Source: an uncultured Chloroflexia bacterium
GTDB lineage: Bacteria; Chloroflexota; Limnocylindria; Limnocylindrales; CSP1-4
Direction of reading: 5' to 3'
Length of the DNA: 64,000 nucleotides
NCBI GenBank assembly: GCA_963766735.1
Contig: CAVYBU010000002.1
Span: 295,697 to 359,696 of the forward strand
Position numbers and translations under genes: made by a program. This document shows, in pieces, positions 6,659-64,000 of the stretch (position 1 is its first letter; the number at the start of each line of letters is the position of its first letter). The notes beneath the pieces are model-generated. The model had not been told where the DNA came from. It worked only from the letters and a program-made list of their open reading frames with translations, and did no database searches.

Positions 6659-6660
6659 CC

Positions 6661-7389
6661 GTGCGGGGCTGCCTGTTCACGCTGCTGCTCGCAGCGATCG
6701 TCCTGGGCTGTGCGGTGGTCATCGGGCTGCCGGCCGCCGCGTCCGCGGTCCTGACCGGCGCCATCACGGCCGCCGGGCTCCAGGCCGACGACACCACGGT
6801 GATCGTCACCAGCGACCAGCCCACGGACCTCATCGGGTTGCACGCGGACCGGGTCCGGATCCGCGCCACTGACGCCACCTTCCATGACCTCGAGATCGGG
6901 AAGCTGGACATCGCGCTGGGTGACGTGGCGATCATCGACCGGACCGTCGGAACCGTGGAGGGGACCCTGGCTGGCGTGACGGTGCCGGATGTCGGCGGGC
7001 GCCCGCTCGAGCTGGCGAAGGTGAGCCTGGGCGGCGGGGGCGAGACGGTGACCGTGTCTACGACGGTCGAGGGCGCCGCGGCCGAGACGCTCCTGGCAGA
7101 CGCGATCGAGGCCGACTCCGGCGTCCGCCCGAGCGCCGTCACCCTCTCCGCGCCGGACCGGATCGCCGCGCGGATGGGCATGGTGGTGCATGCTCGGCTG
7201 CGCGTCAACGCCGCGGGGGACCTCGTGGCGAAGGTGCTCGACGGACCCGAGGCCGGACGCACCCTGACGCTTCTCCGTGGTGGCGACGACCTCCCGATCC
7301 ACCTGACGGGCGTCCGCGTGACCACAGCCGGCGACCTCCGCCTCACCGGCGACCTCGAGATCGGCCTGCTGGGCTTCGTGGGCGGCTGA
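6661..7389 (+). CDS. Membrane-anchored hypothetical protein, possibly LmeA/DUF2993-like
   Basis: N-terminal hydrophobic segment followed by a beta-rich body. The family guess is from pattern only. Confidence 0.55.
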   Translation: MRGCLFTLLLAAIVLGCAVVIGLPAAASAVLTGAITAAGLQADDTTVIVTSDQPTDLIGLHADRVRIRATDATFHDLEIGKLDIALGDVAIIDRTVGTVEGTLAGVTVPDVGGRPLELAKVSLGGGGETVTVSTTVEGAAAETLLADAIEADSGVRPSAVTLSAPDRIAARMGMVVHARLRVNAAGDLVAKVLDGPEAGRTLTLLRGGDDLPIHLTGVRVTTAGDLRLTGDLEIGLLGFVGG

Positions 7390-7444
7390 CACCGGAGGCG
7401 CATCGGCCGGGACCGCGTCCGGGAGCGCCGCCCGCCCCACCGGG

Positions 7445-7450
7445 TAGACT
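7445..7450 (+). promoter_or_regulatory. -10 box TAGACT of a probably leaderless relA mRNA
   Basis: TAGACT lies 6 nt before ATG 7457 with no Shine-Dalgarno; the same geometry occurs at many genes in the window. Confidence 0.6.
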
Positions 7451-7456
7451 CCCGCC

Positions 7457-9763
7457 ATGCCCGATCAGGTCGTCCGCGATCCCGACGTCCCGCCCGCTGC
7501 GGCCCGCGCCGCGTCCCGGGGCGGGCGCCGTGGCGCCCGTCGCGAGATGGATGCGGTTGAGATCGCGGACGTCGTGCCGATCCCGGCCGTCGGCCCCGTC
7601 CCCGCCGCGATGGCCCTGGACCTCCCGGCGCTCCGCGGCGCGCTGCTCGCGTCCGTCGCGCAACACCTCCCCCAGGCCGACCTGTCCATGATCGATCGCG
7701 CCTTCGATCTCGCCGTGGACGCGCACAGCAGCCAGATCCGGGCATCCGGAGAGCCGTACGTCGCACACCCGATCGCTTCCGCGCAGATCCTCGCGGATCT
7801 CGGCATCGATCCGGTTGCCGTCTCCGCCGCCCTCCTCCACGACGTCGCCGAGGACACCGAGTACGACCTCGCCGACGTGGAGGAGCGGTTCGGGCCCGAG
7901 ATCGCCCACCTGGTCGACGGGGTGACCAAGCTTTCCAAGTTCAGCACCCACAGCCACGAGCAGCAGCAGGCCGAGAACATCCGGAAGATGTTCCTGGCCA
8001 TGGCGGACGACATCCGGGTCGTCCTCATCAAGCTTGCGGACCGGCTCCACAACATGCGCACCCTGGGTGCCCTCCCGACGGAGAAGCAGCAGCGCATCGC
8101 CCGCCAGACGATGGAGATCTACGCCCCGCTCGCGGAGCGCCTCGGGATCTGGCAGATCAAGTGGGAGCTGGAGGACCTCTCGTTCAAGGTGCTCGAGCCC
8201 GAGTCCTATCGGGACCTGGCCAAGCTCCTGGACACCCGCCGGACCGGTCGCGAGACGTTCATCGAACGGGCCATCGCGGAGCTCCGCCCGCGACTTGCGG
8301 ATGCGGGCATCGATGCCGAGCTCCAGGGCCGTCCGAAGCACATCTACAGCATCTGGAAGAAGATGCAGCGCAAGGGCGCGGAGTTCGGCGAGATCTACGA
8401 CGTCTACGCCGTCCGCCTCCTGGTCGAGGACATCCGGGAATGCTATGCGGCGCTGGGCACCGTGCACGCGCTGTGGCGCCCGATCCCGGGCCAGTTCGAC
8501 GACTACATCGCGGTCCCCAAGAACAACCTCTACCAGTCGCTGCACACCGCCGTCATCGCCTTCGATGGCAAGCCCCTGGAGATCCAGATCCGCACCCACG
8601 CGATGCACCAGGTGTCCGAGGTGGGCATCGCGGCCCACTGGCGGTACAAGGAGGGATCCAAGGCCGAGCGCGACTACGACGCGAAGCTCGCCTGGCTCCG
8701 CCAGCTCATGGAGTGGCAGCGCGACGTCAGCGAGTCCGACGCGACCGAGTTCCTCGAGGGGATCAAGCTCGATATCTTCCAGGATCAGGTCTTCGTGTTC
8801 ACGCCGCGTGGCGACGTCAAGGATCTCCCTGCAGGTGCCACGCCGCTCGACTTCGCCTACCGGATCCACACCGACGTCGGGCATCGGACGATCGGCGCCA
8901 AGGTCAACAACCGCCTGGTCCCGCTGGACTACCGGCTCAAGAACGGCGACATCGTCGAGATCGTGACGACCAAGGGTGAGCACGGTCCGTCGCGGGACTG
9001 GATGAACATCGTCCGGACCTCGCACGCCCGCGAGAAGATTCGCCAGTGGTTCAAGAAGAAGGACCGCGCGGAGAACATCGTCCACGGGCGGGAGTCCCTG
9101 GAGCGCGAGCTGCGACGCCTCGCCCGGACGAACCTCCAGGCCATCGGCCACGACAAGCTGGTCGAGGTGACGAACCTGTACAAGCACGAGACGGTGGACG
9201 ACTTCCTGGCCGCCATCGGGTATGGCGCCATCTCGGCCCAGCAGGTGGTCATGCGCCTGGGCGTCCTCGACGACGGCGAGATCACGCTGCCCACGGTCGC
9301 CCCGCCGCAGCCACCACGGACGGGCGGCGTCCGGGTCAAGGGGGTCGGGGACCTGCTTGTCCGGTTCGCCAAGTGCTGCCATCCGATCCCGGGTGATCCC
9401 ATCGCGGGGTTCATCACCCGGGGCAAGGGGATCACGGTCCACCTGCGCTCCTGCCCCACGGTGATCAATGAGCGCGAGGTCACCCGCCTGATCGAGGTTG
9501 AGTGGGAGGCGGCACCCTCGCAGACCTACCCGATCGCGATCCGGGTGGAGGCGTACGACCGTACCGGCCTCCTGTCCGAGATCACCCAGGTGATGGCGGA
9601 GAACAAGGTCAACATCCTGGCAGCCAACGTCGGCGTGAACCCGGATCACACGGCGGTGGTGACGATGACGCTGCAGGTGGCATCGGTCGCCCAGCTGGCC
9701 AAGGTCATGAGCCGCGCGGAGCAGCTCAAGGACGTCCTCAGCGTCCAGCGCGACCTGAGCTAG
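7457..9763 (+). CDS. relA: Bifunctional (p)ppGpp synthetase/hydrolase Rel
   Basis: RASGEPYVAHP, LLHDVAEDT (intact HD), KLADRLHNMRTL, GRPKHIYSI, YQSLHT, TGS domain, AKCCHPIPGD, C-terminal ACT. Confidence 0.95.
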   Translation: MPDQVVRDPDVPPAAARAASRGGRRGARREMDAVEIADVVPIPAVGPVPAAMALDLPALRGALLASVAQHLPQADLSMIDRAFDLAVDAHSSQIRASGEPYVAHPIASAQILADLGIDPVAVSAALLHDVAEDTEYDLADVEERFGPEIAHLVDGVTKLSKFSTHSHEQQQAENIRKMFLAMADDIRVVLIKLADRLHNMRTLGALPTEKQQRIARQTMEIYAPLAERLGIWQIKWELEDLSFKVLEPESYRDLAKLLDTRRTGRETFIERAIAELRPRLADAGIDAELQGRPKHIYSIWKKMQRKGAEFGEIYDVYAVRLLVEDIRECYAALGTVHALWRPIPGQFDDYIAVPKNNLYQSLHTAVIAFDGKPLEIQIRTHAMHQVSEVGIAAHWRYKEGSKAERDYDAKLAWLRQLMEWQRDVSESDATEFLEGIKLDIFQDQVFVFTPRGDVKDLPAGATPLDFAYRIHTDVGHRTIGAKVNNRLVPLDYRLKNGDIVEIVTTKGEHGPSRDWMNIVRTSHAREKIRQWFKKKDRAENIVHGRESLERELRRLARTNLQAIGHDKLVEVTNLYKHETVDDFLAAIGYGAISAQQVVMRLGVLDDGEITLPTVAPPQPPRTGGVRVKGVGDLLVRFAKCCHPIPGDPIAGFITRGKGITVHLRSCPTVINEREVTRLIEVEWEAAPSQTYPIAIRVEAYDRTGLLSEITQVMAENKVNILAANVGVNPDHTAVVTMTLQVASVAQLAKVMSRAEQLKDVLSVQRDLS

Positions 9764-44257: not shown

Positions 44258-45220
44258 ATGGGTGCTGACGGTCCGGTCCTGGACCGCGCCATCGAGGAGT
44301 ACCTCGCCTACCTCCGGGTCGAGCGAGGGGTGGCCGAGGCGACCATCACCGCATACCGGGCGGATCTCGCGGACTTCGCGATGAGCCGCGGTGCCGCGCG
44401 TGACTGGGCAGCGGGCCCGGAGGTGGCCCACCGCTACCTGGCGGCCAGGGCCCGGCGCGGGCTGGGTTCCGATCCGGGGCTTGCCCCCAGCAGCCTCCGG
44501 CGGAGGGCGGCCTCCATCCGCGGGTTCTACCGGTTCGCCTTCGGGGACGGGCTGATCGCGGTCGACGTGGCCGCGCACCTGGACCTGCCCCGCCAGCCGC
44601 GCCTGCTCCCGGAGACGCTGACGGTGGACGAGGTCGAGCGCCTCCTGGAGGCCTCCGGCGGCGAGCCCGTCCACGGGCGGAGGCCGACGGGTGCGGACGG
44701 GGCCGCGCTGCGCGATCGGGCGCTGCTGGAGCTGCTGTACGCCGCCGGGCTCCGGGTGTCGGAAGCGCTGGCGCTGGACCTCGAGGACCTGGCGCTCGAT
44801 GGAGGTTTCGTGCGCGTCATCGGCAAGGGCGACAAGGAACGGGTGGTCCCGGTGGGGGAGGTGGCGCTTGCCTGGCTCGCCCGGTATCTCGCCTGGCCGC
44901 GCCCGGCCTGGCTCAAGTCCGTCAGACCCGTAGACGATCCGCGCGCGCCGCTGTTCCTCACCCAGCGGGGCGGCCGCCTCGGGCGGAGCCAGGCCTGGGC
45001 GACGGTCAAGCGCGCCGCCGCGGTGGCGGGTCTTGACGACCGGGTCTCGCCGCACACGCTGAGACACTCCTTCGCGACACACCTCCTGGAGGGTGGGGCC
45101 GACCTGCGGGTGGTCCAGGAGCTGCTGGGACATGCCAGCATCGCAACGACCCAGCTGTACACGCACCTTACGGGCGAGCGGATCCGCGAGGTCTACACGC
45201 GGGCGCACCCGCGCGCCTGA
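44258..45220 (+). CDS. xerD: Tyrosine recombinase XerD-like
   Basis: YLRVERG..T..AYR.DL, ELLYAAGLRVSE, GKGDKERVVP, HTLRHSFATH, TTQLYTH; lies upstream of scpAB. Confidence 0.87.
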   Translation: MGADGPVLDRAIEEYLAYLRVERGVAEATITAYRADLADFAMSRGAARDWAAGPEVAHRYLAARARRGLGSDPGLAPSSLRRRAASIRGFYRFAFGDGLIAVDVAAHLDLPRQPRLLPETLTVDEVERLLEASGGEPVHGRRPTGADGAALRDRALLELLYAAGLRVSEALALDLEDLALDGGFVRVIGKGDKERVVPVGEVALAWLARYLAWPRPAWLKSVRPVDDPRAPLFLTQRGGRLGRSQAWATVKRAAAVAGLDDRVSPHTLRHSFATHLLEGGADLRVVQELLGHASIATTQLYTHLTGERIREVYTRAHPRA

Positions 45221-54488: not shown

Positions 54489-54565
54489 CGGGGCGTGGCG
54501 CAGCCTGGTAGCGCACCTGAATGGGGTTCAGGAGGTCGAGCGTTCGAATCGCTCCGCCCCGACCA
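54489..54565 (+). tRNA. tRNA-Pro (anticodon GGG)
   Basis: Acceptor stem CGGGGCG/CGCCCCG, anticodon stem CCTGA/TCAGG with loop ATGGGGT, T-loop TTCGAAT, encoded CCA; -10 TAGACT at 54474-54479. Confidence 0.97.
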
Positions 54566-54614: not shown

Positions 54615-54622
54615 CTGGGCCT

Positions 54623-54661
54623 GTACCCCGCGCTTGTACCCCTATGCGGTTCCAGTACCCC
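54623..54661 (+). repeat. Putative integrase arm-type sites, left end
   Basis: GTACCCC at 54623, 54636 and 54655. Confidence 0.6.
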
Positions 54662-55670
54662 CGAGAACAGCGTCCATCCGATCGGCCGTCCGCTGGGCCA
54701 TAGCCTTCGTGAACGTTCCGTAGACGTCTGCCGTGGTCGAGATGTTCGAGTGCCCTAGGGCCCTGCTGACCTCGAACAGCTCTGCGCCAGCTTCGAGCTG
54801 CAGCGTCGCGAAGGCGTGCCGCAGATCGTGGAACCGCTGCCGGGGCAGCCCGGCCCGACGGAGGACCTCCCGCAAGTCCGCGGTTACGTTCGGCCCGTCG
54901 AGGGGGCCACCGTTCGCCCGGTTGCCGAAGACGAAGCCTCTGGCGTCCCAGATCTTGGCATCCACCCGGGCTGCCGCCTGAGTCCGCTCGTGGCGACGAA
55001 GGACACCAACCACGGCAAGCGGGAGGCCGAGAGTTCGCTTCGAGCGGTCGGTCCTGGGCTCTGCCAGCCGATCCGTGCCGCGTTCGAGGGTGTGCCGGAT
55101 CGTGGCGGTGGCGGCGTCGAGGTCCACGTCGGACCACCGAAGCGCGAGGAGCTCGCCTTGGCGCATCCCCGTCCCCAGCGCCGTCAGGAACAGCGGCTCC
55201 AGCCGGTGGTCGGCTATCGCCCGCCGGATGTCGCCGACCTGAGCGGCCGTCAGCGGGACTAGGGTGATGTTCGCCTTCGAGGGCGGATCCACCAGCACCG
55301 CGACGTTGCGCAGGATCCGGCCCTGCTTCACTGCTCGGCCGAACGCGATCCGCAGGACCGCGTACGCCGCCCGTACGGTCGTGGGCGAGAGGGTGCCGCG
55401 AGCCATGAGGGAGTCGAGCAACTTCTGGACGTCCTCCGGCGAGACCTTCGCCAAGAGCACCCGACCGAGGGCAGGGCGGGGGAGGTAGGCGCCAGGTGTG
55501 CCGTCCTTGTTCTTGGCCCGTGGCGCGATGTAGTGGTCGACGATGCTCCGGTAGCTTTCCACCGTCCGCGGCCGGCAACGGGTCATGACGCGTCCAGCGA
55601 GCCACTCGTCGAGGTACTCGCCGATGGTGCCCTTGGTGGTCGGTGCGACGACGCCCGCGGCAGCGTCGTC
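54642..55670 (-). pseudogene. Phage/ICE-type tyrosine integrase, 5'-truncated
   Basis: TIGEYLDEWL..RPRTVESYRSIVDHYI, GMRQGELLALRW.DVD, RFHDLRH, LGHS..TT.DVY. The frame is closed by TGA at 55671-55673 with no start upstream of ATG 55586. EPRT (AGG codon) replaces the usual EPKT. Confidence 0.8.
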
Positions 55671-55880: not shown

Positions 55881-57056
55881 ATGAGGACCTTCTACCGCAT
55901 CTGCGTCAAGTTCATGGCGGTCATCTTGTTCGTCTGCGTCCTGTTCTCCGTCCGCTGGGCGGTCGCGGAAGCCCTGGCGCTGAACCCGTTGGGCGTCTTG
56001 CCGTGGATCCTCCTGGGATTGGTCCTCGGCGTCACCGGGTACGTCTTCTGGACACGGACAGACGACATCGTTCTCGACTACGCCGAGCAAGACGCGCGGA
56101 GGATCGGGATGTTCCTGAAGATCTCCAACGCGCTGCGCGAGGGCGTGTCTCCGCCGAGTGCCGAGCGGCCGTCGGGATCGCCCGGTTCGGAGAGTCTCCG
56201 CGCGACGGCCCAAAGCCCATCGCCATCTCTGTCCACCGTCGACCTCCACGCCCTGCATGAGCATCTGGGGGCCGCCGATTCCCGGCTGGTCCAGATCCTG
56301 GCGGAAGCAGCCGGACAACCGCTTCAGGGATGGATCGGGATCAGGGAGTGGGCGGTCGACGAGGCGGCCTGGGTCGACGGCCTTCCCGACGCGGATTGCC
56401 TCGTGACCTTCCGGCGCGAGTATCGCGACGCGACCGACACCGCGCAGGGCTTCGCTGACCAGGTGCTCGTCGCGCTCCGAGCCAACGATCCCGTCGAGCT
56501 GGAGACGCTCTCGGCGACGGCCGGCGAGATCGACGCGCGGTTCCGTGGCGCGTTCGAGACCGCACCGCTGTTTGCTGGTGCCAGTCCAGGACGAGAGAGC
56601 CGTGGTGTCGTGGACGACCAGCCGGACGACGTCGTTCGCACCTTCGCTGGGGTCTGGTTCATGGAGCAGCGGCCGCGATCGTCATTGACCGCGTTCCGGG
56701 ATCGCCGCTCGGGCACGCTGAGCATCCGCCAGGGGGTGATCAGGTTCCGAGATCGGCGGGGCGAGGTCCACATCGGCGGGATTGAGTGGGCCGGCCGGTA
56801 CATGCCGCGAGAGTGGGACCCCCGTTCCGGACAGGGTGACGACATCGTCAACGACTGGATCGAGGTCGGCTACGTGACCACCTCCGGCGACCACCTCGCC
56901 GTCTACATCGCTGATGGCGGCTGGTTCGGCTTGCATGCGATCGCCCGTCGTTGGCTGGGGCGAAAGACACAGCAAGACCTCATCCTCGAGGTCCTCCGCA
57001 ATGCCATCGGGACGTCCGGGCCGTCCCCATCGATCCCGGGCTCGCCTAGCGAGTAG
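55881..57056 (+). CDS. Hypothetical protein with two N-terminal TM segments
   Basis: GGAGAGG RBS before ATG; 391-aa ORF; no family recognised. Confidence 0.7.
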   Translation: MRTFYRICVKFMAVILFVCVLFSVRWAVAEALALNPLGVLPWILLGLVLGVTGYVFWTRTDDIVLDYAEQDARRIGMFLKISNALREGVSPPSAERPSGSPGSESLRATAQSPSPSLSTVDLHALHEHLGAADSRLVQILAEAAGQPLQGWIGIREWAVDEAAWVDGLPDADCLVTFRREYRDATDTAQGFADQVLVALRANDPVELETLSATAGEIDARFRGAFETAPLFAGASPGRESRGVVDDQPDDVVRTFAGVWFMEQRPRSSLTAFRDRRSGTLSIRQGVIRFRDRRGEVHIGGIEWAGRYMPREWDPRSGQGDDIVNDWIEVGYVTTSGDHLAVYIADGGWFGLHAIARRWLGRKTQQDLILEVLRNAIGTSGPSPSIPGSPSE

Positions 57057-57076
57057 AGGGACGAGCGACCGGGGGC
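57014..57076 (+). repeat. Bulged-hairpin repeat, degenerate copy A
   Basis: CCCATCGATCCCGGGCTCGC...GAGCGACCGGGGG aligns with copy H and overlaps the end of the upstream ORF. Confidence 0.5.
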
Positions 57077-57177
57077 AATTCGCTCTCCGTTCGAGAATCA
57101 ACCCAAAGGCGGGAGGCAATGACGCGCGGTCCAACACCCACGGCCGCCGGGACCGCGCCCGAAGGGAGGGTCAACCC

Positions 57178-57573
57178 ATGACAGGCAGAAGCCTCAGCGC
57201 GCAGCTCGCCTTGGCCTCGCTGATGTCCCTGGCCGTAGTAGACGTCTTGTTCGTGTTTCTGGTGGCCGTGGATGTCTTATCCGGAGACGAAGCCCTGGCA
57301 GCCGCGACTCCGAAGATGATCTACTTCTCCCTGATGACCGGTCTCTCTGTCTTCTCGCTTCCCCTCATGTGGTGGCGGAACAGGATCGGCTACTACCTCG
57401 CGATGGCTATCGCGGTCATCTCCCTGCTCGCCAACGCTTCCGGAATCGGGTCAGCTCTGAGTGGTGCCGTCGTCGTCGACGTCAACATCCTCTCGGGAAT
57501 TGTCGGACTGACCTTCTCGGCGATCCTTCTTGTATCTGGCGCAATCGCCTCTAGAGAGAAACCGGCCGGCTGA
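57178..57573 (+). CDS. Hypothetical membrane protein with about 4 TM segments
   Basis: GGGAGG RBS, four hydrophobic segments, visibly more AT-rich than core genes. Confidence 0.75.
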   Translation: MTGRSLSAQLALASLMSLAVVDVLFVFLVAVDVLSGDEALAAATPKMIYFSLMTGLSVFSLPLMWWRNRIGYYLAMAIAVISLLANASGIGSALSGAVVVDVNILSGIVGLTFSAILLVSGAIASREKPAG

Positions 57574-57634
57574 TCCTGCCGCCCGAGACCGCCGCGCTGG
57601 CGCTACCGGGACCGCTGACCACCAGCTCGCGTTC

Positions 57635-57691
57635 GCCCCGGCTCCGCGCGGAGCGCCCGACCTCGACGCGGGACGCCCCGGCGACCGGGGC
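57635..57691 (+). repeat. Bulged-hairpin repeat, copy B
   Basis: GCCCCGG-C-TC-C-GC-G-CGGAGCGCCCG...CGGGACGCCCCG-GC-GA-CCGGGGC followed by TTTCTT; close to copy I. Confidence 0.85.
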
Positions 57692-57742
57692 TTTCTTGTG
57701 TCTAACTTGACAGCGGCGCAAGGCCCACTCGTCGTCTCGGAG

Positions 57743-57810
57743 CCCCGGCTCCGCGCGCTCGCGTTCGATCGCGGCTCTGACCGGCCAGCTCGGCGAGCGG
57801 CGACCGGGGG
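57743..57810 (+). repeat. Bulged-hairpin repeat, copy C
   Basis: CCCCGG-C-TC-C-GC-G-CGCTCGC...GCGAGCG-GC-GA-CCGGGG; 57772-57810 matches 60675-60713 at 38/39. Confidence 0.85.
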
Positions 57811-57846
57811 GCAAGCGCCGTTGCATCGCGGGTCTATGATGCCCCC

Positions 57847-58113
57847 ATGGACGGCGAGCCCACACCGGCCTGGTGGCCGACAAGGATTCTGCTTGCGATC
57901 GGCATCGGCGCGGTCCTGGTCCCGGTGTTCCTGCTGGTCGCCACGCCCACGGGCTCTAGCCCCATGTTTGGTCCCCCGCCCGGCTTCAGGGCGGCCGTCA
58001 GCTTCGTCACGGTCGCCGGGTACCTCGGCATGCTCGTCGGGCTCGCCTGGATGATCCGCATCTTCCGCGGCCCGCGTGACGAGCCGCCGCCCTGGCGCTA
58101 CCGGGACCGCTGA
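57847..58113 (+). CDS. Small 2-TM protein ending RGPRDEPPPWRYRDR
   Basis: TATGAT 6 nt before ATG; two hydrophobic segments. Confidence 0.75.
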   Translation: MDGEPTPAWWPTRILLAIGIGAVLVPVFLLVATPTGSSPMFGPPPGFRAAVSFVTVAGYLGMLVGLAWMIRIFRGPRDEPPPWRYRDR

Positions 58114-58307
58114 TCCGCGCCTGACCGATCGGCAGGGCAAGTGGGCGACGGGTGAGACGTTCGGTTCTGGTGTAACGGGACGCGTGGGTGCAACGTCTCC
58201 ACGTCAGCGGGAGGCTCTGACGCGCGGTCCATCACCCTGGCCGCCGGGACCGCGCCGAGCCACTGGCGAGACCGACCCGCGATCCGGCGTCCCGAGGGGA
58301 GCGTGGC

Positions 58308-58841
58308 ATGAACGACCACGGGACGGCCAGCGCGTCTCTTGTCCTGATCGTGATCGCGATCCTTGCTGGGTGTGGCGGGGCTGGGAGCTCTGTCGCTCTC
58401 CAGTCGCCGACTGCACTCCCTTCTGCCGCAAGTCTTCTGCCGTCCCCTTCGTCGAGCCCCGTGTATGACGGCCCGGACGAGGTCGCCGTCGGGCAATGCT
58501 TCGACATGATCCTCGACAAGGATGACGCCGGTTTCCTGGCCGCGGCGATAGGGTCGTGCGATGTGCCCCATCAAGCCGAGCTGGTCGGGAGGTTTCAGCT
58601 GCCCGACCCAATCGACGCGCCCTATCCGGGTGACTCATCGATCAACAAGGCGTCGGAGGATCGCTGCCGGTCAGCGTTCGGCGAGTACGTCGGCGTTGAC
58701 TACGATGACTCTGGCCTTCAGCTCACCTACTACACGCCAACCGAACTCATCTGGGTTGGTGGCGACCGGTTGGTTCAATGCATTGTCGAGGGAACCTCGG
58801 CCAACCCGTTGAACAAGTCCGTGAAGGGGCTGCGCGAGTAG
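58308..58841 (+). CDS. Lipoprotein with a septum-formation-like Cys domain
   Basis: LAGC lipobox; VGQCFD..CDVPHQAE..YPG..C...F..YVG..PT...W..GDR.V.C pattern. Confidence 0.8.
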   Translation: MNDHGTASASLVLIVIAILAGCGGAGSSVALQSPTALPSAASLLPSPSSSPVYDGPDEVAVGQCFDMILDKDDAGFLAAAIGSCDVPHQAELVGRFQLPDPIDAPYPGDSSINKASEDRCRSAFGEYVGVDYDDSGLQLTYYTPTELIWVGGDRLVQCIVEGTSANPLNKSVKGLRE

Positions 58842-58849
58842 GCGCTTCG

Positions 58850-58886
58850 CGGCTCCGCACCTGGCGGTCACCTGCGCTGGGCGTCC
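58850..58886 (+). repeat. Bulged-hairpin repeat, degenerate copy D
   Basis: CGGCTCCGCACC...GGGCGTCC lies between two ORFs. Confidence 0.45.
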
Positions 58887-58900
58887 CAAGGAGAGGACCG

Positions 58901-59407
58901 ATGCGTCGGGTGCTAGGACTCCTTGCCGCGATCGTGCTCGCGGGTTCGCTCGCCACGTCGAGCGCCGCCGCCGAGCCGGTTGGCCAGCCGGACTCGTTCG
59001 TGGGCAGGTTCGACATTCTGAATAGCAGCGGCGACGTGGTCGCCAACATCAACGCCGAGGTGCGACGACCGGACGACCAGCACCGGGTTCCGGGCCGCTT
59101 CGATCTCTACGGGCCCACCAGCGAGGTCCATGTCTGGTTCGGCACCGTGGGCTTCTGGTATGACGCCAACCACGAGGGCGGATCGAACGTCGTACTCGCC
59201 GAGGGTGCTGGCTGTCGGTACGGCTACAACGGCGACATCTACTGCGGCGCATACGCGCAGATGTTCATCGACGTCCTGGACCCAGCCAAGCCCGATCAGA
59301 ATGCGTTCGCTACCGTGCGCGACGACAACGGCGAGTGGATCTTCACCGAGAACCACTGGTACGACGTCGGCAACGGCAGCTTCGTCCTCCACTACAACGA
59401 GGGCTGA
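58901..59407 (+). CDS. Secreted hypothetical protein
   Basis: AAGGAGAGG RBS, signal peptide MRRVLGLLAAIVLAGSLATSSAAA, beta-rich body with a Cys pair. Confidence 0.78.
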   Translation: MRRVLGLLAAIVLAGSLATSSAAAEPVGQPDSFVGRFDILNSSGDVVANINAEVRRPDDQHRVPGRFDLYGPTSEVHVWFGTVGFWYDANHEGGSNVVLAEGAGCRYGYNGDIYCGAYAQMFIDVLDPAKPDQNAFATVRDDNGEWIFTENHWYDVGNGSFVLHYNEG

Positions 59408-59534
59408 CGTAGCAGCCGCCCGCAATCCCAGGCGAGAGGTCGAAGAGGACCGGGCTATCGGGCTGGCGCGCAGTTTCGGCCGCGGTTGACCCACATATGC
59501 GGCACGCAGACGGCCACCGCCACCATCGGCGCGG

Positions 59535-59590
59535 CCCCCGGCTCCGCACCGCGCGTGATCCATCGGCAGGGCCGGCGGGCGACCGAGCGG
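59535..59590 (+). repeat. Bulged-hairpin repeat, copy E
   Basis: CCCCCGG-C-TC-C-GC-A-CCGC...GCGG-GC-GA-CCG; the inner stem differs from B and C but still pairs. Confidence 0.75.
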
Positions 59591-59675
59591 CAGCGGTAGC
59601 CGGTTCGGCGTCAGGTAGGGAGAGGCCCGCCCTCGCGGGACGGGCCTCCGTTGCCAGAACTGCGGTTTCGGGACG

Positions 59676-60325
59676 TCAGTTCATGCGCTGCAGCGTGTCC
59701 GTGACGTGAAGGCACGCCGGCAGTCCACCATCGGGCACATTGCATTGCTCGGTGTAGTGGCCCTTGCTCGTGTATCGGTAGTCGACGCCACTGGCATCGG
59801 TCACCATGGACTTGGCTTGGAACGAGCTTTCCTTGCCTCGCGTGCCCGATCCCGGTGTGTACCAGTCCCCGTCGTTGCCAGCCAGGAAGAACTGTGAGAT
59901 CGTCCCCGTCGCCCAGGGGGCTTGCTGACCGTCCGTGTCGTGACAGAGGAGGCCGGTGGGCGGGCCTGGGTCCAGGTTCCACACCTCGGTGGTCAGGTCC
60001 GACGCGGTCGCGCGGGCGATGAGCGCGCCCTGGCCGGTCACGTCCGGCTGGATCGAGATCGGCTTCCGCCCAGGAAACGGCCGTCAGGAGGTCCACGTTC
60101 TCCCCGTGAGCAGCCACTGCTCAACTCGACGACGAGTGCCGTGCAGAACCCGGCACGTGTATGGTGCTGAATGACAGCAACCCGATGGTGACGTCGTGTG
60201 CGTCAGGATGCGGTTCGCCTGCAATCTCTCCGGGGTCCGGCGGCGGCCACGCCGGGCAGCATCGCCGCCACCAGCCCTCCGGCGAGCACCGCAAGCAGCG
60301 CACGCTTCTTCAGGGAACGTTTCAT
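59676..60325 (-). pseudogene. Secreted hypothetical protein broken by several frameshifts (decay or sequencing error)
   Basis: Signal peptide MKRSLKKRALLAVLAGGLVAAMLPGVAAA from ATG 60325; coherent C-terminal part in 59676..60041. Confidence 0.6.
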
Positions 60326-60429
60326 CAGGGACCCTCCTGAGACGCCGAGGACGGACGCCCGGCGGTCAGGGGACGGCCGGCGCGATGACGGGCACCTGGT
60401 TACCGCGTCGTCTACGGGGGTGACCAGTA

Positions 60430-60661
60430 CCATCGCACACGGCCGCGGATCAGCGGAGGCAGCGAGCCAGCACGCGGATGACCTCCAGCTCGTCGGCGCC
60501 GCGGTCCAGTCACGTGATCGGACACCGGTCTGAGCCCGTCGGCAGGGTCGAACGCGTACTCCTCCCACACCGTGCACCGCTCGTCATACGAGGGCTGGCC
60601 CACGAACCAGCCGGGGGGCGTCGTGCAGATCGCTCCAGGCGTCGTCGAGGTCGGTGGACAT
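60430..60661 (-). pseudogene. Small-protein gene MSTDLDDAWSDLHDA.., copy 1 (frameshifted)
   Basis: Reads MSTDLDDAWSDLHDA / PPGWFVGQPSYDERCTVWEEYAFDP / GVRSRDWTA / ELEVIRVLARCLR across frames; TACCAT 7 nt upstream; paralogous to 62584-62721. Confidence 0.65.
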
Positions 60662-60674
60662 GACCGCGATGGTA

Positions 60675-60714
60675 CGGCTCCGACCGGCCAGCTCGGCGAG
60701 CGGCGACCGGGGGC
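60675..60714 (+). repeat. Bulged-hairpin repeat, copy F
   Basis: CGGCTCCGACCGGCCAGCTCGGCGAGCGGCGACCGGGGGC, 38/39 identical to the inner part of copy C. Confidence 0.85.
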
Positions 60715-60857
60715 ACCAGCACGCATCGCGGGCCTAGCATGGGGCCGATGAATCACCGGAGGCCCGCCGGCCGACCCGCTCCTGCTTATGGCGGATTCAT
60801 CGCAAACGGGCGTGATCGTCATCCATCGCCTTCGGCGCCATGCTCGTCGGAGTTCAA

Positions 60858-60896
60858 CCCGGCTCGACGGCCAGCCTCCGACGGGGCGACCGGAGG
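60858..60896 (+). repeat. Bulged-hairpin repeat, copy G
   Basis: CCCGGCTCGACGGCCAGC...GGGGCGACCGGAGG, directly before the right arm-type sites. Confidence 0.6.
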
Positions 60897-60902
60897 TCGT
60901 CT

Positions 60903-60922
60903 GTACCCTAACCCCGTACCCC
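60903..60922 (+). repeat. Putative integrase arm-type sites, right end
   Basis: GTACCC at 60903 and 60916, the same 13-bp spacing as 54623/54636. Confidence 0.6.
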
Positions 60923-61007
60923 AACCAGCACGAACGGATGCGGACCCCAGCGGACCCCGTTGAACGTGAAATCAGTCCGCGGCGGCCGATTTCGTGCGTG
61001 GCCGCTA

Positions 61008-61056
61008 TGAATGGGGTTTAGGAGGTCGAGCGTTCGAATCGCTCCGCCCCGACCAC
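61008..61056 (+). repeat. attR-like duplicate of the tRNA-Pro 3' part
   Basis: TGAATGGGGTTTAGGAGGTCGAGCGTTCGAATCGCTCCGCCCCGACCAC; lacks the 5' acceptor strand and D arm. Confidence 0.92.
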
Positions 61057-61065
61057 TCTCTACGC

Positions 61066-61103
61066 ACGAAATAGCCCCTCGGATCGCTCCGAGGACCTTT
61101 CGT
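61066..61103. terminator. Hairpin after attR, homologous to the tRNA terminator
   Basis: ACGAAA..CCTCGGA-TCGC-TCCGAGG..TTTCGT. Confidence 0.6.
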
Positions 61104-61215
61104 CTCGCCGGCCCGCTAGGGTCTGCCGTCCGACGAGAGTCGGAGATTCCCGTGGCCTGCTCGTGACCAGACATGCTCACGAGCATCCCCTCTGGTCAGG
61201 TATGCGCGGAGTCTG

Positions 61216-62562
61216 TCACGCCACCGAGTACAGCCGCTGCTCGCCCTCGATGCCCTTGAGCTTGTGCAGGCCGCGGTCGTCGTAAGCGATGCCGCTACCC
61301 GCAGTCAGCTGCGGCACGATCGATGAGACCCAGACCTCGCCGGCTCGGGCCGTGGTCGCGACGCGAGCGCCGAGATGGACCGCGATGCCAGCCACGCCAT
61401 CGCCCATCCGTTCGACCTCCCCGGTGTGGACGCCGGCGCGGACCTCGACGCCCAGCGGCGCCGAGGCGTGCTGGATGGCGCGGGCACAACTGATGGCGCG
61501 GGCCGGCCCATCGAACGTGGCCAAGATGCCGTCGCCGGCCATGTCGATTTCGCGCCCGCAGTTGGCGGACACTGCGTCATGGATGATGCGATGGTGCTCC
61601 GCGAGCAATTCGCGCCAGCGGACGTCCCCGACCTCGGCCGCTCGCTCGGTTGAAGCGACGATGTCGGTGAACAGGAGCGTGGCCAGCACGCGATCGGGAT
61701 TCACCGGCTCCCGCTCGCCGGTGAGGAACTCACGCACCTCTCCGATGAAGCGGTCGGCATCCTCAGCCCAGGGCAGATGGTCGGCGCCGGCCGTCTCCAC
61801 GTAGCGCGCACCCTCGATGGTGCGGGCGAGGAAGCGGGCGTTCTCGACGTGACAGACCTCGTCTCCCTGGGAGTGGAAGATCAAGGTGGGGACCTTGATG
61901 GTGGGCGCAACGTGCCGAACATCGATGTCGAAGGCCATGCGCGCGAAGGCCTCCCATGCACCGGGCGTGGCGGCATTGCGCTGTCGGCGGGCCATGTACT
62001 CGCGGCCCCAGGGCACGTCGCCCAGGCTGGGCAGGATGAACTGGAAGTTGCCGCCCAGGCCCCAGCGCTCGGGGATGGCCGCCATCCGGGCCTCGTGCTC
62101 CTCGGGCGTGGCCTCGCCCCAGGGCCACTCCTCATCCCGGCGTTCGCGTACCTCGGCACCCTGGAGGATGAGGGCCCGGGCCCGCTCAGGATGGGCCGCC
62201 GCGAAGAGCATGGCCAGCGGGCCCCCTTCCGACTCGCCGATGACCGCGGCTCGCTCGCTGCCGGCGGCGTCCATCACCGCGCGGATATCGTCCATGCGCG
62301 TCTCGAGCGTCGTGGCCCCGGGCACGCGGTCGGACATGCCCATGCCGCGCTTGTCGAAGCGGATCACCCGCGCGAACTCACCCAGGCGTTCGCAGAACCG
62401 GCGATACAGGGGCACCTCCCACGAGACCTCGAGGTGAGTGAAGGCGCCCTCGACATAGACGATGTCGAGCGGGCCATCGCCGTTGACGGAGTAGGCAACG
62501 GAGACGTCGCCGCTATGGGCAAAGTGGACATCGGGCATGACGGCAAGCGTGGCCGTGCTCAT
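61216..62562 (-). CDS. Alpha/beta hydrolase fused to a class III adenylate/guanylate cyclase (LipJ/Rv1900c-like)
   Basis: FDKRGMGMSDR and GESEGG; then LFTDIVAST, AGDGILATFDGP, VRAGVHTGEVE, GIAVHLGARV, LKGI. Confidence 0.92.
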   Translation of the reverse strand: MSTATLAVMPDVHFAHSGDVSVAYSVNGDGPLDIVYVEGAFTHLEVSWEVPLYRRFCERLGEFARVIRFDKRGMGMSDRVPGATTLETRMDDIRAVMDAAGSERAAVIGESEGGPLAMLFAAAHPERARALILQGAEVRERRDEEWPWGEATPEEHEARMAAIPERWGLGGNFQFILPSLGDVPWGREYMARRQRNAATPGAWEAFARMAFDIDVRHVAPTIKVPTLIFHSQGDEVCHVENARFLARTIEGARYVETAGADHLPWAEDADRFIGEVREFLTGEREPVNPDRVLATLLFTDIVASTERAAEVGDVRWRELLAEHHRIIHDAVSANCGREIDMAGDGILATFDGPARAISCARAIQHASAPLGVEVRAGVHTGEVERMGDGVAGIAVHLGARVATTARAGEVWVSSIVPQLTAGSGIAYDDRGLHKLKGIEGEQRLYSVA

Positions 62563-62583
62563 GGCCCGCTGTCAAATGCACAC

Positions 62584-62721
62584 CTAGGCCCGCTCGACAG
62601 GGTCGAAGGCGTACTGCTCCCACGCCTTGCGCCCCTCGTCGTACGAGGGCTGGCCCACGAACCAGACGTCGGGCTCGGCATCGTGGAGGTCGCTCCAGGC
62701 GTCATCGAGATCGGTGGACGT
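62584..62721 (-). pseudogene. Small-protein gene STDLDDAWSDLHDA.., copy 2 (start codon ACG, premature TAG)
   Basis: In-frame TSTDLDDAWSDLHDAEPDVWFVGQPSYDEGRKAWEQYAFDPVERA*; clear DNA similarity to 60535-60661. Confidence 0.7.
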
Positions 62722-62735
62722 CGGCCGACATGGTA

Positions 62736-62791
62736 CGGCTCCGCGCCCGTCGATCCCGGCTCGCTGGCCAGCAGGGGGCCGGGTGACCTGG
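62736..62791 (+). repeat. Bulged-hairpin repeat, copy H
   Basis: CGGCTCCGCGCCCGTCGATCCCGGCTCGCTGGCCAGC...GGGTGACCTGG. Confidence 0.7.
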
Positions 62792-62826
62792 TCGTGACGC
62801 CCTGCATCCGGGACTAGACTGACCGC

Positions 62827-63270
62827 ATGGGCGTCACGCTGACTCGGGTAGGCGCGGGAAACTGGCGCGCCGTCGCGGATCTGGACGTCCGGGACGAACA
62901 GCGTGTGTTCGTTGCTCCGGTGACCCGGTATCTGGCCATGTGCGTGTATGACGGCGGCCCCTGGCAGCCGCTCGCTGTCGAATCGGGTGGTGCTGTCGTC
63001 GGGTTCGCCATGGAGGCCGTGGACCCGACTGACGATTCGTACTGGATCGGGGGGCTTGTCATCGACGCCGCGTCACAGGGGCGCGGGTTCGGGCGAGCAA
63101 CCGTGGAGGCCATGATTGCGCGGGCCAGGGCAGGGTTGCGACCGTCTGTGGCGCTGAGCTACCACCCCAGCAACAATGCAGCTCGGCGGCTCTATGCCAG
63201 CCTGGGCTTTGTCGAGACCGGCGAGGCTGAAGGTGACGAGGTGGTGGGCCGTCTCCTGCTTCGCGCATGA
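62827..63270 (+). CDS. GNAT N-acetyltransferase (spermidine acetyltransferase/BltD-like)
   Basis: NWRAV.DL.V..EQ..FVAP, VGFAM, LVID...QGRGFGR, SYHPSN.AARRLYASLGF.ETG; TAGACT 6 nt upstream. Confidence 0.9.
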   Translation: MGVTLTRVGAGNWRAVADLDVRDEQRVFVAPVTRYLAMCVYDGGPWQPLAVESGGAVVGFAMEAVDPTDDSYWIGGLVIDAASQGRGFGRATVEAMIARARAGLRPSVALSYHPSNNAARRLYASLGFVETGEAEGDEVVGRLLLRA

Positions 63271-63359
63271 CGCCGATGGACGTGCCGCGGCGGGCGCCGA
63301 GGAGCGGCCCCGAGCGGCAGCCGGCGGCGGGCTGAGCGAGGACGAGTTCATCGTCCCTT

Positions 63360-63415
63360 CCCCGGCTCCACGCGGAGCGCCCGACCAGCTGGCGGGACGC
63401 CCGGCGACCGGGGGC
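63360..63415 (+). repeat. Bulged-hairpin repeat, copy I
   Basis: CCCCGGCTCCACGCGGAGCGCCCG-ACCAGCTGG-CGGGACGCCCGGCGACCGGGGGC followed by TTCTT; differs from B mainly in the loop. Confidence 0.85.
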
Positions 63416-63546
63416 TTCTTCACGACGAACTGCTCTGGCCCAGCCGCGCCCGGGCCCGCGCATCGTTCCTGCCAGCGAAGACGCGTACAGCGCGGAACGG
63501 GGGCGTGGTCACGCGCCGCCGGGTCGCCGGACGAGGGGCGTCAGCA

Positions 63547-63945
63547 ATGTCTGGGCAGTCGAGCATCGGGAGCGCTCCTGTCACCCTGGCGGCAATCTTC
63601 GTTATCGCATTTGCCGCCATCCTGCTGCCGGCCCTGCTCATGGAGGCCATTGAGAACCCCTGGGACCAGCTCGTCGTGCTCCTGATTGTGGCTTTCGGTG
63701 GCATAGCCGTCGCTGGCGTGCTTGGCGGGCTGCTCGGTGGACGCGGTCGGGGCTATGCGGTCGGGCTCGCGGGCGCGGTCGCCGGGCTCGTGGGCATGAT
63801 TGCCGGGAACTGGGTTGCCTACGAGCGACCCATCGACAATGAGGGCCCGTACGCGCTGTACGGGATCGCGTACTGCGCCGCCTGGGGGGTTCGAGCGGCG
63901 GTGCGTTCCGAGCGGGGTCCAAGTCTCGGTCCGCCGACCGGCTAG
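63547..63945 (+). CDS. Hypothetical membrane protein with about 4 TM segments
   Basis: GAGGGG before ATG 63547; four hydrophobic segments. Confidence 0.7.
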   Translation: MSGQSSIGSAPVTLAAIFVIAFAAILLPALLMEAIENPWDQLVVLLIVAFGGIAVAGVLGGLLGGRGRGYAVGLAGAVAGLVGMIAGNWVAYERPIDNEGPYALYGIAYCAAWGVRAAVRSERGPSLGPPTG

Positions 63946-63968
63946 GTCGGCAGTCCGCCCCACCGGAA

Positions 63969-64000
63969 CCCGGCTCGATCGGCATGGCCAGCGGGTGACC
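63969..64000 (+). repeat. Probable further hairpin copy J, cut by the window edge
   Basis: CCCGGCTCGATCGGCATGGCCAGCGGGTGACC resembles the inner and right parts of copies G and H. Confidence 0.45.

Follow-up and report, generated by a model that had tools for sequence, protein, structure and literature searches.

The stretch of DNA analysed here (the window, 64,000 nucleotides from an uncultured Chloroflexota genome) ends in a row of same-strand hairpins lying among short ORFs, and the locus raises the question of what these hairpins are, which element carries them and whether a recombinase reads them. Because the hairpins behave like integron attachment sites but no integron enzyme was found, the gene shuffling they take part in may be the work of a system not yet described.

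The hairpin row and its setting at tRNA-Pro

The hairpin has the consensus CCCCGG-C-TC-C-GC-R-[variable stem]-GC-GA-CCGGGG. Of the copies in the window, B, C, E and I are complete, five are decayed and one further copy (J) is severed at the contig end (Table 1; bit scores are from a covariance model trained on 30 sequences, B, C and I among them). Within the window the exact two-arm pattern is present three times, where 0.02 occurrences would be expected. An earlier note on this DNA had counted about ten same-strand copies, which holds for the complete, decayed and cut copies but not for D (given at 58850), a left arm without a partner, and it had overlooked copy X. The same note saw no copies in 54 kb of core genome; BLAST with 125 cores likewise returned none in 1-54,000, where the best covariance-model match reached 20.4 bits (E 0.025). 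The source genome holds 24 copies in six places (27 BLAST rows minus 3 discarded as chance), so the window array is not unique.

The array sits in an integrative element at tRNA-Pro with both attL and attR, a setting absent from the earlier note. Its integrase is phage-type and broken, as had been described, with an in-frame stop upstream; it is 58% identical to the integrase of satellite L033 and scores 53 bits against the IntI model TIGR02249 (cut-off 265). The GTACCC repeats within the att sites are probably integrase arm-type sites. The window carries the stacked remains of decayed satellite elements at tRNA-Pro. The cassettes each comprise a single gene or a pair, and many supply a promoter of their own along with a c-di-GMP-II riboswitch, features that had also gone unmentioned. 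A GTAAC-N17-CGTC motif upstream of the complete riboswitch is presumably an ECF-like promoter. A 90% match between the GNAT gene and its copy on C30 spans start codon to stop plus 4 nt.

Table 1. Features of the tRNA-Pro element and hairpin row (window positions).
Feature	Position	Strand	Basis or remark
tRNA-Pro(GGG), integration site, attL core	54489..54565	+	3' part repeated at 61008-61056, 1 mismatch/49
Short GTACCC repeats inside attL	54622..54661	.	read from sequence; also inside attR and in L033, L299
Tyrosine integrase, phage-type, 5' end lost	54642..55586	-	PF00589, phrog_1
Cargo ORF, 391 aa, no family	55881..57056	+	ORF list, domain search
Hairpin A	57015..57075	+	left arm decayed, right arm intact
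Partial c-di-GMP-II riboswitch copy	57109..57159	+	90% match to 58207-58256
Cargo ORF, 131-aa hydrophobic protein	57178..57573	+	ORF list, domain search
Relic: 3' end of 57847-58113 gene, before hairpin B	57584..57618	+	94% match to 58080-58113
Hairpin B, complete	57633..57694	+	54.5 bits; MFE with three bulges
Hairpin C, complete	57740..57813	+	55.7 bits; MFE with three bulges
Cassette gene, 88 aa	57847..58113	+	related copy between hairpins in rpoD island
Hairpin X, left arm lost	58114..58152	+	BLAST E 1.5e-7, 14 cores
c-di-GMP-II-GAG riboswitch	58201..58286	+	RF03169, 74.7 bits
Cargo lipoprotein-like ORF with Septum_form domain	58308..58841	+	PF13845
Copy D, left arm only	58849..58861	+	not found with BLAST cores or covariance model
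Cargo ORF, secreted-type, no family	58901..59407	+	relative precedes hairpin in L182
Hairpin E, near complete	59533..59592	+	33.7 bits
Broken copy of 80-aa passenger gene, dsRBD-like fold	60444..60667	-	recurs in all larger arrays of source genome
Hairpin F, left side shortened	60674..60714	+	decayed/left-truncated copy
Hairpin G, decayed, adjoins attR arm repeats	60855..60900	+	13.8 bits; BLAST E 3.6e-8
attR: tRNA-Pro 3' part copy and its terminator	61008..61105	+	sequence repeat
Cargo LipJ-like hydrolase/adenylate cyclase, past attR	61216..62562	-	domain search
Hairpin H, decayed	62733..62795	+	22.1 bits
Cargo GNAT acetyltransferase	62827..63270	+	domain search
Hairpin I, complete	63357..63417	+	52.0 bits
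Cargo ORF, 132-aa hydrophobic protein	63547..63945	+	ORF list, domain search
Hairpin J, decayed, ends with contig	63969..64000	+	partial copy

A bulged fold across the host family

The hairpin is 60-75 nt long (cores 48-68 nt). A covariance-model scan of related genomes, as the earlier note had proposed, found it in 47 of 150 host-family genomes, and pairing and bulges are retained across 18 of 39 genera. The outer stem is continuous and 2+2 bp separate the first and last bulge. Among 99 model matches C occupies bulges 1 and 2 in 98 and 95 respectively, and 93 carry a purine at bulge 3; viewed on the bottom strand, which gives the more stable fold in 102 of 121 cores, the bulged bases are G, G and a pyrimidine. 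In the stems 93% of cells pair, and two-sided changes occupy 170 cells compared to 67 in shuffles. The GC/GC block between the bulges becomes GG/CC in five copies from two genomes. In two copies of one genome the outer stem has C-G in place of a G-C pair, this stem being preset by the search patterns and its compensatory changes perhaps representing only two events. Where the search pattern left inner positions free, every one of them pairs in 65 of 97 sequences (shuffled mean 34, maximum 46), and of 110 copies that could be classified, 107 have left and right inner halves of one subtype. The earlier description of an inner stem that varies while its pairing is kept was borne out, with covariation extending into the bulged part. 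The bulged fold it gave is the MFE structure of B and C and partly of I, but not of A, D-H or J. As no window copy is unusually stable compared to shuffles (z -1.2 to +2.5), the evidence for structure is comparative, not thermodynamic.

Probable cargo joints in integrative phage satellites

Neighbouring hairpins less than 4 kb apart were co-oriented in 32 of 33 pairs, and those of L394 keep one strand although its cargo genes are found on both. Only variable regions contain the hairpins, and none lies behind core genes, in agreement with the clustering that the earlier note had expected. Flank sharing was one-sided in 27 of 28 hairpin pairs. Shared blocks (at least 150 bp, at least 88% identity) ended within 30 nt of a hairpin in 19 of 35 cases (null mean 6.8, maximum 17 in 1000), a count from which ends with collinear continuation within 250 bp were removed, since hairpin masking itself makes ends at hairpins, with short continuations able to slip through. 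In contigs of other samples the gene end at 58113 was joined to hairpins C and I and preceded three different hairpin subtypes, these being short contigs matched at 90% likeness and joints of a kind that repeats attract. Gene-content breakpoints do fall at hairpins, as had been supposed, but not at one fixed position: shared sequence stops within the left or the right arm, or as far as ~35 nt outside. The apical loop tracks neither flank in L239, L276 and L036, and complementarity between cassette ends (mean run 2.9 in 16 pairs compared to 3.1 at random) indicated no cassette-specific core pairing. These sequence comparisons show cassettes moving between loci and genomes, with their ends at hairpins.

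Two complete integrative elements (L033 and L394) carry hairpin-separated cargo adjoining attR, the hairpin row lying between the core genes and attR, and both share with the window element an att pair at a tRNA and a tyrosine integrase. L394, an IMG/VR record, combines an att pair at tRNA-Val with an integrase, terS and terL, followed by five hairpins, with no capsid or tail match among its 13 proteins. In L033 the att pair is at tRNA-Pro, and integrase, excisionase, AAA_25 and RusA-like genes are followed by three near-identical hairpins. Both carry replication/packaging modules but lack a complete set of virion genes; the window copy has lost these modules. Judged by their genes, these intact relatives of the window array are phage satellites, and we hold with high confidence that the hairpin is a boundary element of satellite cargo. 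Hairpins were absent from five other att-pair elements with a related integrase (L325, L328, L331, L333, L338).

Tycheposons and similar elements are described as targeting tRNAs, with partial tRNA att sites, cargo, and stacking and decay at the tRNA (bioRxiv 10.1101/2020.12.28.424599). The satellites here resemble PICI-like satellites and tycheposons in these traits and in their tyrosine integrase, excisionase, and helicase and terminase modules. They differ in the presence of both terminase subunits in L394, and in their hairpin arrays, no repeated structured site between cargo genes being described in the passages on tycheposons.

Competing explanations for the exchange of cargo

The best overall explanation, which we judge about evenly balanced between right and wrong, is that phage satellites exchange cargo at the hairpin, which is read as a structure by an enzyme acting in trans. 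On this view the hairpin joins the cargo cassettes that integrative satellites carry in one Chloroflexota family, with the role of the satellite integrase limited to inserting the element into a tRNA. The hairpin would fold when replication or transfer leaves its DNA single-stranded, and cargo would be exchanged there. A protein would read the three bulged bases on the bottom strand and strands would be exchanged in the outer arms, a proposal under which the inner stem would be inherited whole. That a recombinase reads the hairpin as a structure has, in our view, an even chance. The earlier note had suggested looking for a co-occurring tyrosine, serine or HUH enzyme; the only recombinases recurring as a family beside the hairpins were the att integrases, most of them truncated. 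The enzyme would not be encoded in the cassettes, and by analogy the first candidate would be a host pair resembling XerC/D, at 123-1088 and, for the XerD-like gene, 44258-45220 of the window. Xer acts on folded CTX-phage DNA; that it is the enzyme acting at the hairpin is unlikely.

Sites of the pdif type are 28-bp two-arm duplexes, whereas the hairpin is a bulged site of 60-75 nt in direct orientation. At pdif sites, too, host recombinases would probably act in trans. The pdif modules of Acinetobacter plasmids share with the hairpin arrays accessory genes placed between repeated sites (PMC6449649, PMC7399989). The relative L333 carries a separate 28-bp dif-like array; its repeat has no match in G000 with up to 5 substitutions allowed, and no sequence in common with the hairpin.

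The main rival is homologous recombination between repeats: the hairpin would be a short non-autonomous mobile element of MITE or REP type, or a lost element's end, that accumulates where satellites keep their cargo, and RecA or phage annealing proteins would recombine its conserved 30-bp arms, shuffling the genes between. No dedicated enzyme would be necessary, and crossovers in either arm, exchange mostly within subtype (21 of 23 one-sided pairs), terminal inverted repeats that decay outward and three near-identical dispersed copies in G200 all fit. We nevertheless find it somewhat unlikely, as flanking direct repeats were no different from those of shuffled pairs, a limited sequence set contained no empty site for 134 copies, the Y1 HUH transposase (PF01797) was found in none of 25 hairpin-bearing genomes (controls positive in 6 of 14), core intergenic DNA has no copies, and pairing and bulges are conserved across genera. 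The strict co-orientation also stands against the mostly inverted dimers of REPs (PMC3733652). GTAG/CGTC REPs, TIRs and MITEs are likewise short intergenic palindromes, often right behind stop codons, but according to the same paper measure 20-40 bp; the hairpin is longer, low in copy number and island-confined, without fixed tag, inverted dimers, target duplication or RAYT/TIRYT. A fixed REP tag was sought in 138 right flanks, where CTAC occurred in 12 and CGTC in 15 at varying offsets. A REP or MITE identity was rejected on the lack of Y1 transposase, tag and target duplication. IS91/ISCR ends were also rejected, the Y2 transposase (PF04986) occurring in one of the 25 genomes, away from hairpins in a hairpin-free 37-58% GC stretch of G000:C6.

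Quite unlikely is that the hairpin works as RNA (a terminator, insulator or processing signal) riding with cargo, with homologous recombination shuffling the genes as a side effect. In 71 of 84 copies the upstream ORF points the same way, often at a distance of 8-100 nt, short T-rich tracts follow B and I, and the inner GAT/CCAG loop is retained in many subtypes. Against this, B alone gave a terminator-like call, the count of five was not above the shuffled 3.0, copies between divergent genes or at 5' ends keep their strand (L394; window F and H), and none lie behind core genes. Rfam, a check proposed earlier, gave no match to the hairpins in window 54-64 kb (E up to 5) or, at gathering score, in five other hairpin arrays.

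Compared to attC sites and CALINs (PMC5027507, PMC7439510, PMC4889954), the hairpins are alike in lying on one strand between short unrelated ORFs in clusters less than 4 kb apart, with three extrahelical bases on the gene-proximal arm (G first, pyrimidine last, bottom strand), a variable tip, structure retained despite sequence drift and gene content changing at the sites. They differ in a sequence-conserved outer stem, in bulges 2 bp apart, and in cassettes that often bring promoter and riboswitch, in either direction, on satellites, integron cassettes being promoterless. That they are very divergent attC sites whose integron integrase is missing from the assemblies is highly improbable: core length, bottom-strand stability and a GTT at +6 to +8 past the right arm in 21 of 138 copies fit, but an AAC lies within 12 nt upstream in just 9 of 138, there is no unpaired central spacer and no R-box complementarity, and four base pairs span first to last bulge where IntI1 needs six (PMC5027507). 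The earlier note's statements that IntI and RYYYAAC/GTTRRRY boxes are lacking are confirmed, TIGR02249 exceeding its cut-off in none of 25 hairpin-bearing genomes (50-94% complete) and the AAC and GTT showing no cognate pairing. An attC identity was rejected on these grounds and the lack of a fixed crossover.

Returning to the structure-read exchange site, a wider reading, tentative and somewhat short of even, is an integron-independent cassette system in which phage satellites of one Chloroflexota family store and swap self-contained, often c-di-GMP-controlled cargo at a single-strand, bulge-read hairpin through a recombinase outside IntI, Y1 and Y2. If true, structure-specified cassette recombination would have arisen a second time, independently; should the fold be read by a non-IntI enzyme, this would add a class of structure-specific recombination with possible engineering use. 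A defined site of 60-75 nt marks the joints in complete elements, decayed stacks and strain variants, which bears on how satellites and islands renew cargo hotspots and how single genes turn into cassettes. Even under the rival, the covariance model R1 serves as a marker with which cargo can be mined in an abundant uncultured soil and sediment family, among it arrays of surface proteins under c-di-GMP-II control.

Fold, copies and distribution of the hairpin

The genome carrying the window (G000; 3.62 Mb, 94% complete) places it at the end of contig C2, where gpsA is the last core gene and is followed by tRNA-Pro(GGG), past which GC content drops from about 0.71 to 0.67-0.70. The exact hairpin pattern (CCGGCTCCGC..GCGACCG) matched three times in the window versus 0.02 expected by chance. 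A covariance model of the hairpin (R1), built from 30 diverse copies, scored hairpins C, B, I and E at 55.7, 54.5, 52.0 and 33.7 bits, and H and G at 22.1 and 13.8 bits, with the strongest match in core DNA of the window at 20.4 bits. BLAST with 125 hairpin cores added hairpins A and F and a further copy, X, at 58114. The earlier note had claimed about ten copies (A-J); the covariance model bore out B, C, E and I, but D is a left arm alone, J is cut off by the contig end and X had been overlooked. Folding energy gave no signal of unusual stability for single copies.

Hairpin cores were 48-68 nt long with the consensus (G/C)CCCCGG-C-TC-C-GC-R-[inner stem and variable tip]-GC-GA-CCGGGG(C/G). Among 99 R1 hits the three unpaired bases on the left arm (bulges 1, 2 and 3) were C in 98, C in 95 and a purine in 93. 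Paired cells amounted to 93%, with 170 both-side changes compared to 67 in shuffles (pair counts from a model-fitted alignment of non-independent kin), and slid registers paired only 34-54% in the pair-count control. Because the alignment was fitted to R1 and kin are not independent, two further covariation checks matter. The metagenome scan yielded 97 distinct inner sequences; in 65 of them all positions left unfixed by the pattern paired, compared to 34 (maximum 46) with arms swapped. Among R1 hits, GG/CC replaced GC/GC between bulges 2 and 3 in five copies from two genomes and C-G was swapped for G-C in the outer stem in two copies from one genome, variants that lie outside the reach of the search patterns and were recovered by R1. 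Of 565 loose matches, 455 could not be assigned to a subtype and were left out; among the 110 classifiable ones, left and right inner halves had the same subtype in 107. Covariation holds across hairpin subtypes, upholding the original observation of conserved bulges and pairing kept while sequence changes. No family matched the hairpin in the Rfam scan.

Across 401 genomes of the order, the exact pattern matched 45 times and the reversed pattern 4 times. The 31 genomes with the exact pattern all belong to the window's family and represent 11 of 44 genera. R1 was positive in 47 of 150 genomes of the family, from 18 of 39 genera. Named hits of a GTDB scan that passed the inner-stem check were mostly titled Ca. 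Limnocylindrales or Chloroflexia, and most non-Chloroflexota matches failed this check and seem accidental. Of three viral scans run with hairpin patterns, one gave a single chance-like hit, one gave nothing and one gave the IMG/VR record L394. G000 holds 24 copies at six places, and no contig-end overlap joining C7:1-9 kb to the window array was found.

Locations of hairpin copies in G000 and of associated features
Feature	Location	Remarks
Hairpins of G000	window	9 copies
Hairpins of G000	C7:1.7-8.8 kb	8 copies
Hairpins of G000	1.2-kb island, tRNA-Leu to copy of tRNA-Leu 3' end	3 copies
Hairpins of G000	1.2-kb island, rpoD 3' end to its copy	2 copies
Hairpins of G000	upstream of tRNA-Pro(TGG)	1 copy
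Hairpins of G000	C8	1 copy
tRNA-Pro(GGG), attL core	window 54489-54565
Repeat of tRNA-Pro 3' part (attR)	window 61008-61056
Hairpin copy X	window 58114-58152
Riboswitch arrays (c-di-GMP-II-GAG)	window 58201-58286; G000:C7 1.8-8.3 kb; L329; L355	each precedes a different secreted/membrane protein
GNAT gene	window 62827-63270
GNAT gene copy	G000:C30 259430-259876	90% identical
80-aa protein family	window 60444-60667, 62588-62724; L001 5064-5310
Island at rpoD 3' end	L002 9110-10345	~1.2 kb, no integrase
Island at tRNA-Leu(CAA)	L003 6810-8130	~1.2 kb, no integrase
23-nt unit, three tandem repeats	L221 2219-2284	immediately ahead of hairpin left arm
Eight co-oriented 28-bp dif-like repeats	L333 (G154:C2) 5677-9671	370-800 bp apart, between cargo genes
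Second, XerC-like recombinase	L333 12927-13859
Both terminase subunits	L394 5180-7076
Low-GC stretch	L283 (G000:C6 1-12000)	37-58% GC in a 70% GC genome

Carrier elements and cargo

Within the window a phage-type integrase, truncated at its 5' end, lies inside attL, and hairpin G abuts the arm repeats of attR, with the array extending past attR. The tRNA-Pro locus holds differing hairpin-bearing cargo in L032, L033, L291, L294, L299, L329, L362 and L363. Two carriers, L033 and L394, were complete. The 9.9-kb L033 comprises an att pair, an integrase 58% identical to that of the window, genes for excisionase, AAA_25, RusA-like and SIR2-like proteins, and three near-identical hairpins ahead of attR. 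In L394 (11.65 kb) the att pair is at tRNA-Val, the integrase belongs to a different subfamily, and terS and terL are followed by five co-oriented hairpins, the first 44 bp past terL and the last about 80 bp short of attR, with cargo genes on both strands. This element is satellite-sized and no capsid or tail gene was recognised in it. The hairpin was absent from five further elements with att pairs. Tycheposons are described (bioRxiv 10.1101/2020.12.28.424599) as elements that stack and decay at tRNAs, and we read the window as a decayed stack of such satellite elements at tRNA-Pro. The islands in L002 and L003 each carry an att duplication and arm-like repeats, and could be minimal elements movable in trans.

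A promoter-like motif and a c-di-GMP-II-GAG riboswitch stand at the start of many cassettes (13 Rfam hits, spread over four of five arrays scanned; 22 BLAST matches in G000), and a riboswitch-like motif lay within 140 nt of the hairpin in 20 of 138 copies. DNA shared by the two GNAT genes begins at the start codon and ends 4 nt past the stop, as if a bare ORF had been captured. The commonest hairpin neighbour was an 80-aa protein without a Pfam, PHROG or NCBIfam match, having a dsRBD/HicA-like fold of a common type (best Z 6.6). Every G000 match of this family fell within hairpin arrays and most were broken. It occurred in 25 of the 150 genomes and was common where a genus had few hairpins or none, so it was rejected as the hairpin enzyme and regarded as a passenger.

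Breakpoints, polarity and the reading of the hairpin

Flanks compared among 125 copies were shared upstream only in 7 pairs, downstream only in 20 (two of which look two-sided by eye) and on both sides in 1. Across 108 loci, short and duplicate loci being left out and hairpins masked, 19 of 35 shared-block ends fell 30 nt or less from a hairpin, 12 of them at most 5 nt away, versus 6.8 within 30 nt for random intergenic positions (maximum 17 in 1000). Several shared blocks had a hairpin at or near both ends, at different loci; the block of L031/L072 measured 617 bp (97%), and that of L290/L291, from two tRNAs of one genome, 860 bp (93%). In contigs of four public runs the gene that ends at 58113 is joined to hairpin C (in two runs) or hairpin I, and H is linked to DNA behind A. 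The joint to C fits a closed circle, or any other C-type cassette behind the gene. Of the sequence words sought in two RNA runs, only 5-7% were present. The expectation of breakpoints at a fixed hairpin position was thus borne out in their proximity to the hairpin, but not at one base: shared blocks variously pass through the left arm, start past the right arm, or end 10-35 nt outside. In some pairs the inner part tracks the upstream gene; in others it tracks neither flank. Searches for cognate pairing between cassette ends, for target duplications and for empty sites were negative, and the apical loop was rejected as the place of crossover. Facing the right arm, stop codons were enriched as triplets, yet only 13 of 138 copies had one that ended a coding-like ORF.

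Neighbouring hairpins were co-oriented in 32 of 33 pairs, and hairpin direction equalled tRNA direction in 35 of the 39 copies that lie no more than 10 kb 3' of a called tRNA (two tRNA calls are doubtful). In L221 a second hairpin, in the opposite direction, faces the first and sits between two recombinase genes. Because the bulges are invariant, the inner stem is inherited whole and polarity is independent of neighbouring genes, we give an even chance to a protein that would read the folded single strand of the hairpin and exchange in its outer arms. If the copies were a mobile repeat undergoing homologous recombination, the loose crossovers would be accounted for, but polarity and bulges would not; we consider this unlikely. 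Less probable still is a role of the hairpin as RNA, which fits upstream co-orientation in 71 of 84 copies but not the copies at 5' ends.

Search for an enzyme and relation to known systems

IntI over the cut-off was found in none of 25 hairpin-bearing genomes, which agrees with the array having been described as lacking it. Y1 was likewise found in 0 of 25, and Y2 in one, its sole hit lying in low-GC DNA that does not seem to belong to the bin. G000, the only genome searched for them, contained no serine resolvase or reverse transcriptase, and none of its five IS110 copies lay beside a hairpin. The L283 stretch, encoding an IS91-family transposase and a broken tyrosine recombinase, is probably a chimeric or contaminating piece of the bin. 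Pfam analysis of 84 neighbours from metagenome loci (109 genome-locus neighbours were clustered only) identified three phage-type integrases and four unrelated DDE transposases, and the 19 tyrosine recombinase hits in 141 hairpin loci were mostly att integrases, many truncated. A second XerC-like clade adjoined hairpins in L221, and its copy in G160 stops 42 bp ahead of a hairpin; it was rejected, being found in none of 24 genomes of the window's genus, and 30 of its loci gave only three weak R1 matches (E 0.14-0.52). The co-occurring tyrosine, serine or HUH enzyme that the earlier note had looked to was therefore not identified, and since complete carriers have no second recognisable recombinase, any enzyme would act in trans. 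The tRNA-Thr element L333, to whose 28-bp repeats two sites in L288 are similar, may be a pdif-like cassette array that supplies its own enzyme.

A divergent attC, which the hairpin resembles in layout, is very improbable, as three defining features taken from PMC5027507 and PMC7439510 failed. CALINs require attC (PMC4889954), and REPs differ from the hairpin in size, tags and arrangement (PMC3733652). Literature searches, with supplements and subscription journals outside them, found no published description of the repeat; the main text of a genomics paper on the lineage (PMC13212565) lacks 'integron', 'integrase', 'repeat' and 'genomic island', and a term search of a hotspot preprint (10.1101/2024.10.15.618418) found repeats and hairpins unmentioned. 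Cassette arrays bounded by repeated sites on satellites are a known kind, and we file the hairpin array as a variant of it; that it represents a new structure-read recombination system is a tentative proposal, to which we give slightly less than an even chance. The hairpin marks boundaries in satellite cargo at which gene content changes; it is conserved as a fold and is strictly polar.
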